Shown here in pieces: positions 35,492 through 51,520 of a stretch of 64,000 nt of DNA (its first letter is position 1; each line of letters begins with the position of its first letter). The DNA lies in NCBI RefSeq assembly GCF_056746865.1, contig NZ_CM163382.1. One strand, given 5' to 3'. The notes beneath the pieces were generated by a model. That model saw only the letters and a program-made list of their open reading frames with translations. It did no database searches and had not been told where the DNA came from. The position numbers and the translations under genes are program-made.

Positions 35492-35598
35492 CTTCAGGTA
35501 TCCCCTTTTAAATCCGCAAGTTGCGTGATTTTCTTATCCTCTGATTTATCAGTATTTTTACATGATAACCCTGTTCAATTTGTGGACTAAATCTAGTT

Positions 35599-35615
35599 TT
35601 GGAAAAATATTCCAA
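35599..35615. promoter_or_regulatory. Candidate AllR operator in the allS-allA intergenic region
   Basis: Palindrome ttggaaaaatattccaa, near-identical to the palindrome upstream of gcl. Confidence 0.55.
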
Positions 35616-37133: not shown

Positions 37134-37148
37134 GACAAAATTTGAAAG

Positions 37149-37165
37149 TTGGAAAATTTTTCCAA
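37149..37165. promoter_or_regulatory. Candidate AllR operator in the gcl promoter
   Basis: Perfect palindrome ttggaaaatttttccaa, about 20 bp upstream of the gcl ribosome-binding site. Confidence 0.6.
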
Positions 37166-37185
37166 TTAATAGAGGTAGGAATAAA

Positions 37186-48486: not shown

Positions 48487-49536
48487 TTATTGCGCAAAGG
48501 GATTTTTCGTTTCGTATGACGTGTTATAAAGCGCGTCAGAAATTAAATACTGGTAAATATCATCAACAATTTCGATGCCTTCGACGGCGGCTTTGCGTTG
48601 TTTAATATCCTGATCCTGTCCGGGATAATAAACCTGGTTAAAACCGGGCGCGGGGGTTATGGCATTTAATTCGCGCATGGTCTGGCTAAGATGTTGACGG
48701 AATAGTTCGCTGGAGGAGAAAAAGTTCGGGTTAATAACGATATGTAATTGCCCCAAATTACGCCCGGCGTGTAAATCGTCATACATCGAACTAACCTGTC
48801 GCCCGAACGGTAAGCCGAGTAAGACGCCTGAGAGGACGTCAATCATCATCATCAGGCCATACCCTTTCGGTCCGGCGGCAGGGAGCAGGGCGTTAACTGC
48901 AAATGGATCGGTTGTTGGTGCTCCGTTTTTATCGACCGCCCAGGTATCCGGGATAGACATATTACGCGAGCGGGCGTCGAGCACTTTTCCCCATGCCTGT
49001 ACGGTAGTCGCCATATCAAAGGTAAGGATCTCGTCGCCTTCTCCCGGCGCGGCAAAGGCCAGTGGGTTAGTACCGTAGTAAATTTCCGCGCCGCCAAACG
49101 GCACCACCATTGGATCGGACTGGCACATCGAAATGCCAATTAATCCTGCGCGGGCTGCCTGCTGCACAAAATAAGAGATTGCGCCGCTGTGACCCATCCG
49201 GCTGATACCGACCACCGCAACGCCATTTTGCTGGGCGGTTTTGATGGCATGTTCCATACCCATTTTCGCCGCGACCTGTCCGGCAGCATTGTCGGCATGT
49301 AAAATTGCCGAACACGGCCCGGTTTCTTCAAGACGAAATTCCGGTTCACGGTTGGTGCCGCCTTTTGAAATGCGTTCCGCGTAGTATTCCACGCGCACCG
49401 CGCCATGAGAGTGGATCCCTCTGGCATCGGCGTAAACCAATACTTCAGCCACGGTTGCAGCGTGCTCACGTTTTAACCCAGCCTGGCAGAGTTTATTCTC
49501 GATTAGCTGGCGGAGTGTTTCCCGACTGATTTTCAT
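48487..49536 (-). CDS. allD: Ureidoglycolate dehydrogenase
   Basis: 349 aa, MKISRETLRQLIENKLCQAGLKREHAATVAEVLVYADARGIHSHG... Confidence 0.9.
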   Translation of the reverse strand: MKISRETLRQLIENKLCQAGLKREHAATVAEVLVYADARGIHSHGAVRVEYYAERISKGGTNREPEFRLEETGPCSAILHADNAAGQVAAKMGMEHAIKTAQQNGVAVVGISRMGHSGAISYFVQQAARAGLIGISMCQSDPMVVPFGGAEIYYGTNPLAFAAPGEGDEILTFDMATTVQAWGKVLDARSRNMSIPDTWAVDKNGAPTTDPFAVNALLPAAGPKGYGLMMMIDVLSGVLLGLPFGRQVSSMYDDLHAGRNLGQLHIVINPNFFSSSELFRQHLSQTMRELNAITPAPGFNQVYYPGQDQDIKQRKAAVEGIEIVDDIYQYLISDALYNTSYETKNPFAQ

Positions 49537-49595
49537 CTGTCTTCCTTTTTAACGACGGTGTGAAGCATGACTGCAATTAACATACAGGGAAAATA

Positions 49596-49615
49596 TCTGG
49601 ATTATGTGATCCAGA
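49596..49615. promoter_or_regulatory. Palindrome in the divergent allD/fdrA control region (candidate operator)
   Basis: tctggat-tatgtg-atccaga, a perfect 7-bp inverted repeat with 6-bp spacer in a 316-bp AT-rich intergenic region. Confidence 0.3.
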
Positions 49616-49852
49616 CAGGCAAAAAAATATAGTTAGAATTTATTTGATAATCCGCTCGCTTTTAACCTGGTTTTTAAAACAACCACGCTTATTAAAAAAT
49701 AACACGTAATAGCATGGCGGTTATTTGAATTCTTTTGTTAATAATCCCTGTGTGATATTCATCACCTTATTTTCCCGTTCTCATCGATACCGTAATCGCC
49801 ACATTAACACTGCTCGTGCAATTGCCATGGGTGCAATTTTTAAGGAGTTGTT

Positions 49853-51520
49853 ATGATCCACGCCTTTATTAAAAAAGGGTGTTTTCAGGATTCTGTCAGT
49901 TTAATGATTATTTCACGAAAACTCAGCGAATCAGAAAATGTTGATGATGTTTCCGTAATGATGGGTACGCCCGCCAATAAAGCGTTATTAGATACCACAG
50001 GTTTCTGGCATGACGATTTTAATAACGCCACGCCGAACGATATTTGCGTGGCAATTCGTAGCGAAGCGGCGGATGCGGGGATCGCGCAGGCGATTATGCA
50101 ACAGCTTGAAGAGGCGCTAAAACAACTGGCGCAGGGTTCAGGCAGCAGCCAGGCGTTGACGCAGGTGCGTCGCTGGGACAGTGCCTGTCAGAAATTACCC
50201 GATGCCAGTCTGGCGCTGATTTCAGTGGCTGGCGAGTATGCGGCGGAGCTGGCTAATCAGGCGCTGGATCGCAACCTCAACGTGATGATGTTCTCCGATA
50301 ACGTCACGCTGGAAGATGAAATCCAGCTCAAAACCCGCGCACGCGATAAAGGCTTGCTGGTGATGGGGCCGGACTGCGGTACGTCGATGATTGCCGCCAC
50401 GCCGCTGGCTTTTGCTAACGTGATGCCGGAAGGCAATATTGGCGTCATTGGCGCTTCCGGTACCGGGATTCAGGAGCTGTGTTCGCAGATTGCGCTGGCA
50501 GGTGAGGGAATTACCCACGCGATTGGTCTTGGCGGGCGCGACCTCAGCCGTGAAGTGGGCGGCATCAGTGCGCTAACGGCGCTGGAAATGTTAAGCGCCG
50601 ACGCGAAAAGCGAAGTGCTGGCATTTGTTTCAAAACCACCTGCCGAAGCTGTGCGTCTGAAAATTGTTAATGCCATGAAAGCAACCGGCAAACCGACGGT
50701 GGCGCTGTTTTTAGGTTATACCCCGGCGGTGGCCCGCGACGAGAATGTCTGGTTTGCCTCCTCGCTTGATGAGGCCGCACGCCTGGCTTGCCTGCTTTCA
50801 CGCGTCACGGCGCGACGTAACGCAATAGCACCTGTCAGCAGCGGATTTATTTGCGGTTTGTATACCGGCGGTACGCTGGCTGCTGAAGCGGCGGGATTAC
50901 TTGCCGGACACCTTGGCGTGGAAGCCGACGATACCCATCAACATGGCATGATGCTCGACGCCGACGGACATCAGATCCTCGACCTGGGCGATGATTTTTA
51001 CACCGTCGGGCGTCCCCATCCGATGATCGACCCGACCTTACGCAACCTGTTAATTGCCGATCTCGGCGCTAAACCGCAAGTGCGCGTGTTGCTGCTTGAT
51101 GTCGTGATTGGCTTCGGTGCGACTGCCGATCCTGCCGCCTCGCTGGTGAGCGCCTGGCAAAAAGCCTGTGCCGCGCGTCCAGACAATCAACCACTGTATG
51201 CCATTGCCACGGTGACAGGCACCGAACGTGACCCGCAATGCCGCTCGCAACAAATCGCCACGCTGGAAGATGCGGGGATCGCGGTCGTGAGTTCGCTGCC
51301 GGAAGCCACCTTGCTGGCGGCAGCGTTAATTCATCCGCTCTCGCCTGCCACACAGCAACACACACCGTCATTACTGGAAAACGTCGCCGTGATTAACATC
51401 GGATTACGCAGCTTTGCGCTGGCGCTACAAAGCGCCAGCAAACCGGTTGTGCATTACCAATGGTCGCCAGTCGCCGGCGGCAATAAAAAACTGGCTCGTT
51501 TATTAGAACGTTTGCAATAA
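49853..51520 (+). CDS. fdrA: FdrA (CoA-binding, succinyl-CoA synthetase alpha-like) protein
   Basis: 555 aa, MIHAFIKKGCFQDSVSLMIISRKLSESENVDDVSVMMGTPANK... Confidence 0.85.
   Translation: MIHAFIKKGCFQDSVSLMIISRKLSESENVDDVSVMMGTPANKALLDTTGFWHDDFNNATPNDICVAIRSEAADAGIAQAIMQQLEEALKQLAQGSGSSQALTQVRRWDSACQKLPDASLALISVAGEYAAELANQALDRNLNVMMFSDNVTLEDEIQLKTRARDKGLLVMGPDCGTSMIAATPLAFANVMPEGNIGVIGASGTGIQELCSQIALAGEGITHAIGLGGRDLSREVGGISALTALEMLSADAKSEVLAFVSKPPAEAVRLKIVNAMKATGKPTVALFLGYTPAVARDENVWFASSLDEAARLACLLSRVTARRNAIAPVSSGFICGLYTGGTLAAEAAGLLAGHLGVEADDTHQHGMMLDADGHQILDLGDDFYTVGRPHPMIDPTLRNLLIADLGAKPQVRVLLLDVVIGFGATADPAASLVSAWQKACAARPDNQPLYAIATVTGTERDPQCRSQQIATLEDAGIAVVSSLPEATLLAAALIHPLSPATQQHTPSLLENVAVINIGLRSFALALQSASKPVVHYQWSPVAGGNKKLARLLERLQ

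Follow-up and report, generated by a model that had tools for sequence, protein, structure and literature searches.

The allD-allF intergenic region

The window analyzed here, a stretch of 64,000 nucleotides, is a segment of the Escherichia coli chromosome with 100% identity to strain 118UI, and the region described below was found in 5,401 of 5,426 complete E. coli genomes. In this region, allD and fdrA, now named allF, are divergent and are separated by an intergenic region of 316 bp (49537 to 49852) with a G+C content of 36%. A sequence-only reading had described this region as AT rich and had pointed to a perfect 7-bp inverted repeat within it. The sequence and coordinates given for the repeat are exact. 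The genes and the elements between them are listed below in window coordinates, with positions at the allD and allF promoters counted from the predicted starts.

48487-49536, minus strand: coding sequence of allD (ureidoglycolate dehydrogenase)
49579-49584, minus strand: predicted allD -10 hexamer, TATGTT, with TAnnnT at a fixed 20 nt from GATCACA
49596-49615: palindrome TCTGGAT-TATGTG-ATCCAGA (7-6-7), at about -24 to -43 of the predicted allD promoter
49596-49602: left arm of the palindrome, TCTGGAT, at -30 to -24, in the predicted allD -35/-10 spacer; not conserved outside Escherichia
49603-49608: spacer of the palindrome, TATGTG
49605-49611, minus strand: conserved core TGTGATC, which is GATCACA on the allD strand, at about -39 to -33 of the predicted allD promoter
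49609-49615: right arm of the palindrome, ATCCAGA, at -43 to -37 of the predicted allD promoter; ATC invariant, CAGA common
49629-49652, minus strand: conserved block ATAGTTAGAATTTATTTGATAATC, at about -57 to -80 of the predicted allD promoter
49650-49709: AllS-binding electrophoretic mobility shift assay (EMSA) fragment (-203/-144 from the allF ATG; PMC12535856)
49711-49770: ArcA-P-binding EMSA fragment (allFp -142/-83; PMC12535856)
49749-49769, plus strand: full CRP site tgTGTGAtattcaTCACCtta, at -41.5 of the predicted allF promoter
49788-49793, plus strand: predicted allF -10 hexamer, TACCGT, with TAnnnT at a fixed 21 nt after the proximal CRP half-site
49853-51520, plus strand: coding sequence of fdrA (allF)

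As reported previously, both AllS and ArcA are needed for expression of an allF'-lacZ fusion (Kim and Kim 2025, PMC12535856). The expression of allD is anaerobic only, and the regulator imposing this restriction has not yet been assigned (PMC12535856). In EMSAs, a crude lysate containing AllS shifted the -203/-144 fragment, in which a PRODORIC motif is centered at -181 (near 49672), and a lysate containing ArcA-P shifted the allF -142/-83 fragment; the allF promoter boxes shown in the same paper are computational predictions from EcoCyc (PMC12535856). The palindrome, whose center is at -247.5 from the allF ATG, lies outside both of these binding fragments. Mapping of cis-elements has hardly begun for the allD and allF promoters, and the comparison presented here provides a guide for promoter mutagenesis.

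Occurrence and variation of the palindrome

The two 7-bp arms of the palindrome are not extended by further pairing outward in either direction. To see how often such a repeat arises by chance, 5,000 dinucleotide-preserving shuffles of the 316 bp were scored. At least one perfect 7-bp inverted repeat was present in 20% of the shuffles with a spacer of up to 6 and in 27% with a spacer of up to 10. Because equal or better repeats are this frequent (20 to 27%), the palindrome is not significant by itself. When at least three G/C per arm were required, a filter set after the fact, a repeat was found in 4.5 to 6.3% of the shuffles. Two further inverted repeats, each perfect over 7 bp, occur in the 316-bp region itself, and their spacers are 14 and 16.

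When three mismatches were allowed, the palindrome motif matched three times in the 64-kb window, against 1.2 matches expected. The other two matches fall in coding sequence, and at this threshold the window holds no second good copy. GATCACA, TCTGGAT, and ATCCAGA are absent from every other intergenic region of the all cluster; thus, none of them is a regulon-wide motif.

Within E. coli, the stretch around the palindrome (49581 to 49630) was identical to the window in 5,017 of 5,318 genomes. The corresponding counts were 1,877 of 5,318 for 49650 to 49699, which covers the published AllS motif, and 141 of 5,337 for 49770 to 49819. As these counts depend on the window's own haplotype, they serve as a rough guide only. 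The palindrome stretch is under constraint in E. coli, and at such divergence its two arms are indistinguishable. Four sampled E. coli variants differed from the window in the A-run at 49620 to 49629 or carried an IS1 insertion, and they were uninformative on the arms. The IS1 insertion, seen in one strain, lay inside the left arm.

Conservation across Enterobacterales

One scan of GTDB representative genomes with AllD gave 80 loci. In 37 loci with a full-length match, from Enterobacterales and close relatives, fdrA was divergent from allD, as in E. coli. The comparison set was composed of about 34 other Enterobacterales in which allD and fdrA are likewise divergent.

When the intergenic regions of 20 Enterobacteriaceae were aligned with MAFFT without anchoring, the longest stretch free of variation in the region was TGTGATC, which consists of the 3' part of the palindrome spacer and the first three bases of the right arm. 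Loci carrying it (as GATCACA on the allD strand) span Enterobacteriaceae, Serratia, Erwinia/Pantoea, Budviciaceae (Budvicia and Pragia), Rahnella, and Providencia. The distance from GATCACA to the allD ATG was 71 to 87 nt in 33 of the 34 loci compared and 111 nt in Pragia. In the anchored alignments the GATCACA columns are invariant by construction, and the independent support for the core comes only from the unanchored alignment and from this constant position.

The whole right arm (TCTGGAT on the allD strand) was found in 18 of 35 genomes, or 15 of the 32 outside Escherichia, and the genera that keep it include Citrobacter, Superficieibacter, Atlantibacter, Serratia, Erwinia, and Pantoea. 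At the left arm, positions 49596 to 49600 carried 0.27 to 0.62 bits, with the E. coli base present in 2 to 11 of the 32 non-Escherichia genomes. The only left-arm bases retained were A49601 (28 of 32 non-Escherichia genomes) and an A/T at 49602.

Pairing between the arms was complete (7/7) in E. coli only. It was 6/7 in E. whittamii, with one end broken, and 1 to 4 of 7 in the 32 other genomes. Where the conserved arm varies, as in the ATCTGGA of Klebsiella, no compensatory changes were seen in the other arm. Selection that maintained the dyad symmetry would have kept both arms, or let them co-vary, in orthologues, and this was not the pattern found. Given the arm pairing and the lack of conservation of the left arm, the dyad symmetry is an Escherichia-specific layer over an older asymmetric element.

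Predicted allD promoter

In 33 of 35 genomes, a TAnnnT hexamer was located downstream of GATCACA at a distance of exactly 20 nt. In E. coli it reads TATGTT (49584 to 49579), Klebsiella has TATTTT, and Serratia and Erwinia have TACATT; GTATGTT is conserved in the alignments. If this hexamer is the -10 element, transcription of allD would start near 49572 with a 36-nt leader, and the TCACA pentamer, exactly 20 nt upstream of the -10-like TATGTT, would occupy about -37 to -33. A literature search returned no paper tying CRP to allD and nothing useful on an experimental allD start.

Farther upstream, the block ATAGTTAGAATTTATTTGATAATC (49629 to 49652) contains many invariant columns in the alignment of 20 Enterobacteriaceae. 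Its conserved ...GATTATCAAATAAATTCTAAC (49652 to 49632) is placed exactly 20 nt before GATCACA in Enterobacteriaceae, and the block may be a recognition site for AllS or a site for ArcA. In general, the spacings around the core are rigid and the intervening sequence is variable.

The divergent allF promoter

On the allF side, tgTGTGAtattcaTCACCtta is listed as a novel high-affinity CRP site located between allD and fdrA at K-12 position 546586, with a Kd of 9.8 nM (Footprint-seq preprint, PMC12871828); K-12 coordinates correspond to window coordinates plus 496,827. For comparison with the allD side, a CRP position weight matrix was built from the 39 other novel CRP sites in Table 1 of the preprint (PMC12871828). 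With this matrix, the allF-side site scored 18.4, the best score in the whole window, and its GTGA-N6-TCAC was invariant in 33 genomes. A TAnnnT lay exactly 21 nt after the proximal CRP half-site (TCACn) in 30 of the 33 genomes. Taken as the -10 element, this hexamer would set the allF transcription start near 49800 and the CRP site at -41.5. A CRP site at -41.5 has the canonical class II geometry. The two divergent promoters appear to share a layout in which a conserved block near -60 is followed by a TCACA half-site near -41 and a TAnnnT at -10.

A proposed one-sided CRP-type site at the allD promoter

Most likely, the palindrome arose by chance in one lineage, where it completed a conserved asymmetric activator site, either of CRP type or for activation by AllS, at the -35 region of allD. 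We assign a probability of roughly 0.55 to the full reading, namely, that the symmetry is a coincidence of this lineage, built on an older asymmetric element of the allD promoter, and that the likely occupant of this element is CRP-cAMP. The functional unit would be approximately A-W-W-W-TGTGATC-YRGA on the plus strand, or TCTGGATCACAwwwT on the allD strand. Its TCACA is positioned as expected of a class II activator that overlaps the -35 region and would touch RNA polymerase. CRP-cAMP would bind through one near-consensus half-site. Such a one-sided site would probably be too weak to act by itself and would need RNA polymerase and/or AllS, either of which could stabilize the complex. The observations comprise the sequence with its pattern of conservation, the rigid spacings, and the match to a CRP half-site, and both transcription starts, the protein bound, and the direction of regulation are inferred. 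With its left arm free of selection and placed in the -35/-10 spacer, the dyad would have no function of its own.

The similarity of the half-site to CRP half-sites is high. TGTGATC agrees with the half-site consensus at 7 of 7 positions, and the allD-side half-site scored 12.2 of a possible 13.4, ranking second among the 127,980 10-mers of the window. The A/T-rich 5' flank (49601 to 49604) and the invariant TC after TGTGA also match the CRP consensus AAATGTGATC. The geometry resembles that of class II CRP promoters, such as galP1, and of orphan half-sites. The proximal TCACA is 20 nt from the -10-like hexamer, compared with the canonical 21 nt, and the element is centered at -40.5, a class II activating position (about -41.5) provided that the predicted start is correct. 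In addition, the half-site would mirror the full, in vitro-bound CRP site at -41.5 of the neighboring allF promoter.

The element differs from class II CRP sites in that it lacks the distal half in every genome. In E. coli, the 20-mer at 49603 to 49622 does not show the two recognizable halves of TGTGA-N6-TCACA, and its full CRP score was 1.2, compared with a minimum of 9.8 among the training sites. This low score is due to the distal half, CAGGC, which matches the CRP half-site at 0 of 5 positions. In other genera the 20-mer scored 6.5 to 14.5 (Rahnella, 14.5; Atlantibacter, 13.6; Providencia, 12.8; Erwinia, 11.2), and several genera reached values (10.6 to 14.5) that fall within the span of the training sites. 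A CRP-like distal half was found in 0 of 35 genomes; one of the 35 has C at position 2, and none has A at position 5. The allD-side element is absent from the table of novel CRP sites with Kd values of <=10 nM in PMC12871828, a table that covers one subset of 1,217 regions.

The palindrome is probably ordinary promoter anatomy and not a new operator, since only its right half is conserved across the enterics and its left half is conserved only in Escherichia. The proposal of the sequence-only reading, that the palindrome is an operator for AllS or another regulator, is partly supported. The repeat does overlap regulatory DNA, but its dyad is not conserved and it lies outside the AllS and ArcA fragments; the proposal was partly right on the place and wrong on the reason. 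It is TGTGATC that matters, together with the blocks spaced at fixed distances from it, rather than the palindrome. The result is a new instance of a familiar type of element and does not point to a new kind of system.

AllS as a possible occupant of the core

The conserved half could instead be the activation site of AllS, an alternative that we regard as doubtful but worth keeping in mind. An AllS tetramer would then sit on a recognition site at 49629 to 49652 and on a weaker site, TCTGGATCACA (about -43 to -33), from which it would contact RNA polymerase at the allD promoter; on this view, too, the left arm would be incidental. AllS is reportedly essential for allD expression and is said, where the work of Rintoul et al. 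from 2002 is cited, to bind allD promoter DNA. LysR-type regulators typically use a recognition site near -65 together with an activation site overlapping the -35 region. On the predicted start, the core at -43 to -33 and the upstream block at -57 to -80 would fit this layout, and the distance between the block and GATCACA is fixed at 20 nt.

The better LysR-like dyad lies in the neighboring block at 49629 to 49652 and not in the palindrome. The block shows a TCAA...TT(C/G)(T/A) dyad and bears a weak resemblance to the motif of the AllS paralogue YdhB/AdnB (TsttwTCAAwAwwwTTGaaGGCA, with the core TCAAwAwwwTTGa). In Erwinia/Pantoea, the position-equivalent columns form the palindrome TTCAAA-N5-TTTGAA, which, judged by position, may be the same site. 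The palindrome itself lacks the T-N11-A dyad of LysR-type sites, and the ATCACA of the core agrees with the presumed AllS half-site TTCAAA at only 4 of 6 positions. An AllS activation site also offers no explanation for the 7/7 match to a CRP half-site. Moreover, the only fragment assayed for AllS binding, 49650 to 49709, shares 3 nt with the block and omits the palindrome, yet it shifts. This fragment, however, is poorly conserved both between genera and within E. coli, its shift was obtained with crude lysate, and the published AllS motif sits in the least conserved stretch of the region.

Other possible factors at the core

It is rather unlikely that the core serves some other factor, asymmetric or monomeric, such as an anaerobic or nitrogen regulator or integration host factor (IHF), or that it is an element read by RNA polymerase itself. 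The TC after TGTGA, and hence GATC, is more strictly invariant at the core than in the neighboring genuine CRP site, at a distance of 150 bp, which may point to a protein other than CRP. The anaerobic expression of allD, with its responsible regulator not assigned, would also leave room for such a factor. Read by eye, GATCACAttaTT is partly like the IHF core WATCAAnnnnTTR, and ATCACA agrees with the -35 consensus TTGACA at 4 of 6 positions. However, no other known motif gives a better fit than the CRP half-site, and ATCACA, at 20 bp from the -10 hexamer, is too far away to serve as a -35 element. FNR in particular is disfavored; its TTGAT-N4-ATCAA is matched at 4 of 5 positions by the proximal ATCAC but at only 0 to 3 of 5 by the distal half (by eye), and PRODORIC gave no FNR site (PMC12535856).

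Two more far-reaching possibilities are given a small probability when taken together. In one, an ancestral one-sided activator site of allD may have been extended in Escherichia into a full 20-bp dyad (-24 to -43) that serves an Escherichia-specific dimeric regulator. In the other, the invariant GATCACA would be bound by an anaerobic or nitrogen regulator, not described before, that acts on the oxamate branch. If the former were true, the regulator could be the aerobic repressor or the anaerobic switch still missing for allD; if the latter were true, the regulator would be common to all Enterobacterales.

The palindrome as a possible dimeric operator

The claim that the whole 20-bp palindrome is the operator of a dimeric regulator, AllS or another, for allD and/or fdrA in Escherichia is very improbable. 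One possibility within it is a repressor that occludes -24 to -43 of the allD promoter. What speaks for such an operator is a perfect dyad that overlaps the predicted -35 region, is nearly fixed in E. coli (5,017 of 5,318 genomes, with the sampled variants in the A-run and not in the arms), and, with at least three G/C per arm, is matched in only about 5% of the shuffles. Without that after-the-fact filter, the chance rises to 20 to 27%. Conservation of the left arm stops at Escherichia, no compensatory changes are seen, no other copy occurs in the intergenic regions of the all cluster or in the 64-kb window, and the fragments that bind AllS and ArcA are elsewhere. A center-to-center arm spacing of 13 bp is also unusual for helix-turn-helix dimers.

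PRODORIC places OxyR at -224 and SoxS at -237 from the allF ATG, predictions that adjoin or overlie the palindrome. Deletion of allR, oxyR, or soxS had no effect or changed allF'-lacZ expression about 1.3-fold, and the authors judged the changes of about 1.3-fold seen for oxyR and soxS to be indirect (PMC12535856).

The least probable reading is an RNA hairpin, attenuator or terminator-like and with UAUUUUCCC after it, in an allD leader whose promoter would lie further upstream: a consensus scan flags the palindrome as terminator-like on the minus strand and the predicted RNA fold has an energy of -10.9 kcal/mol (z = -4.6), but a strong fold is the automatic outcome of picking a palindrome, the U-tract is short and interrupted, the stem is neither conserved outside Escherichia nor supported by covariation, Rfam gave no match (the sole hit was a chance SCARNA7, far below threshold), and a start near 49572, as predicted, would leave the palindrome outside the allD mRNA.

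Other motifs in the region

Several further motifs were considered and set aside. CATAAT in the palindrome spacer region (minus strand, 49606 to 49601) was tried as the allD -10 element and rejected, as its position is not conserved; the CACAAT of Klebsiella is shifted by 2 nt, whereas the distance of the TAnnnT at 49584 to 49579 is constant in 33 of 35 genomes. A sigma-54 promoter (GG-N10-GC) across the palindrome has no GC at -12, and the TGG is not conserved. No good direct-repeat pair for an ArcA box was present in or near the palindrome.

The sequence-only reading had also held that the palindrome is distinct from the AllR palindromes, and this was confirmed. The operators of AllR, a member of the IclR family, belong to the same gene cluster and are likewise inverted repeats in control regions, but they are of the form TTGGAAAA-N2-TTTTCCAA, and none is present in the allD-fdrA region. 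In agreement with this, no AllR site was predicted there and deletion of allR had no effect on allF'-lacZ (PMC12535856). With up to three mismatches allowed, the only matches to the AllR operator were those at 35598 to 35615 and 37148 to 37166.

Conserved elements upstream of allD and fdrA

On the fdrA (allF) side, the 316-bp intergenic region has the appearance of a canonical class II CRP-dependent promoter kept across Enterobacterales, as indicated by conservation of the following two elements.

49749-49769, fdrA/allF side: CRP site, with GTGA-N6-TCAC invariant in 33 genomes
49788-49793, fdrA/allF side: TAnnnT hexamer, exactly 21 nt downstream of the CRP site in 30/33 genomes

The novel in vitro CRP site reported by Footprint-seq (PMC12871828) is the same site as 49749-49769. 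The allF regulators predicted and tested by Kim and Kim 2025 (PMC12535856) were only AllS, ArcA, OxyR, and SoxS.

Two conserved direct-repeat blocks, TTTATTTGATAATCC at 49639-49653 and TTTTGTTAATAATCC at 49733-49747, were found in the intergenic region, one for each predicted divergent start and lying approximately 55-80 nt upstream of it, and the 8-mer TTATTTGA was present twice, at 49640 and 49721. The block at 49733-49747 coincided with the top PRODORIC ArcA prediction (-117). The block at 49639-49653 may be the allD counterpart of that site or, alternatively, an AllS recognition site. The AllS motif and EMSA fragment as published (49650-49709) corresponded to the least conserved part of the region, which aligned poorly between genera and was divergent even in E. 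coli E69 (AACCTGG versus GGTTTGT). Identity to the window at 49650-49699 was found in only 1877 of the 5318 E. coli genomes.

A perfect 9-bp inverted repeat was also detected, with one arm near each predicted core promoter (GGGAAAATA at 49587-49595 and TATTTTCCC at 49768-49776) and 172 nt between the arms. The allD-side copy was kept in Enterobacteriaceae. Since the fdrA-side copy had already changed in E. whittamii and E. coli E69, the pairing of the two arms is probably due to chance.

AllR-type palindromes were present elsewhere in the window, as expected from the literature.

35598-35615: AllR-type palindrome TTTGGAAAAATATTCCAA, allS-allA intergenic region
37148-37166: AllR-type palindrome TTGGAAAATTTTTCCAAT, allR-gcl intergenic region

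Variation of the region in other genomes

In Proteus (compared loci L024, L025, L027, L029, L030, L032, L036, L042, L050, and L055), no fdrA relative was found near allD at these ten loci. GATCAC(A/G)GCAGATC, with two GATC sites 10 bp apart, was located approximately 110-119 nt upstream of allD, and in P. mirabilis the two sites form the palindrome TGATC-N6-GATCA. This motif may be a differently arranged relative of the GATCACA element, the conserved core of the 49596-49615 palindrome on the allD strand.

In E. coli GCEC19 (L084, NZ_CP137765.1), an IS1 lies inside the left arm of the 49596-49615 palindrome (junction at ~49599), where it takes the place of the allD-proximal part of this strain's control region. 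Insertions of ~125 bp resembling ERIC/IRU repeats and containing ...GAGTCCCCAGGAGC...GTGACTGGGGTGAACG... were observed in the allD-fdrA intergenic regions of Klebsiella spallanzanii (L017; columns ~175-300 of the intergenic alignment, A1) and Serratia sp. Ag1 (L028; upstream of allD).

Two records, titled Chryseobacterium sp. 18061 (L008) and MAG Sporobacter termitidis bin60 (L011), carried AllD 83% identical to that of E. coli and the same intergenic layout. Because these allD-fdrA loci are of the Enterobacteriaceae type, contamination or mislabelling of both assemblies is suggested.
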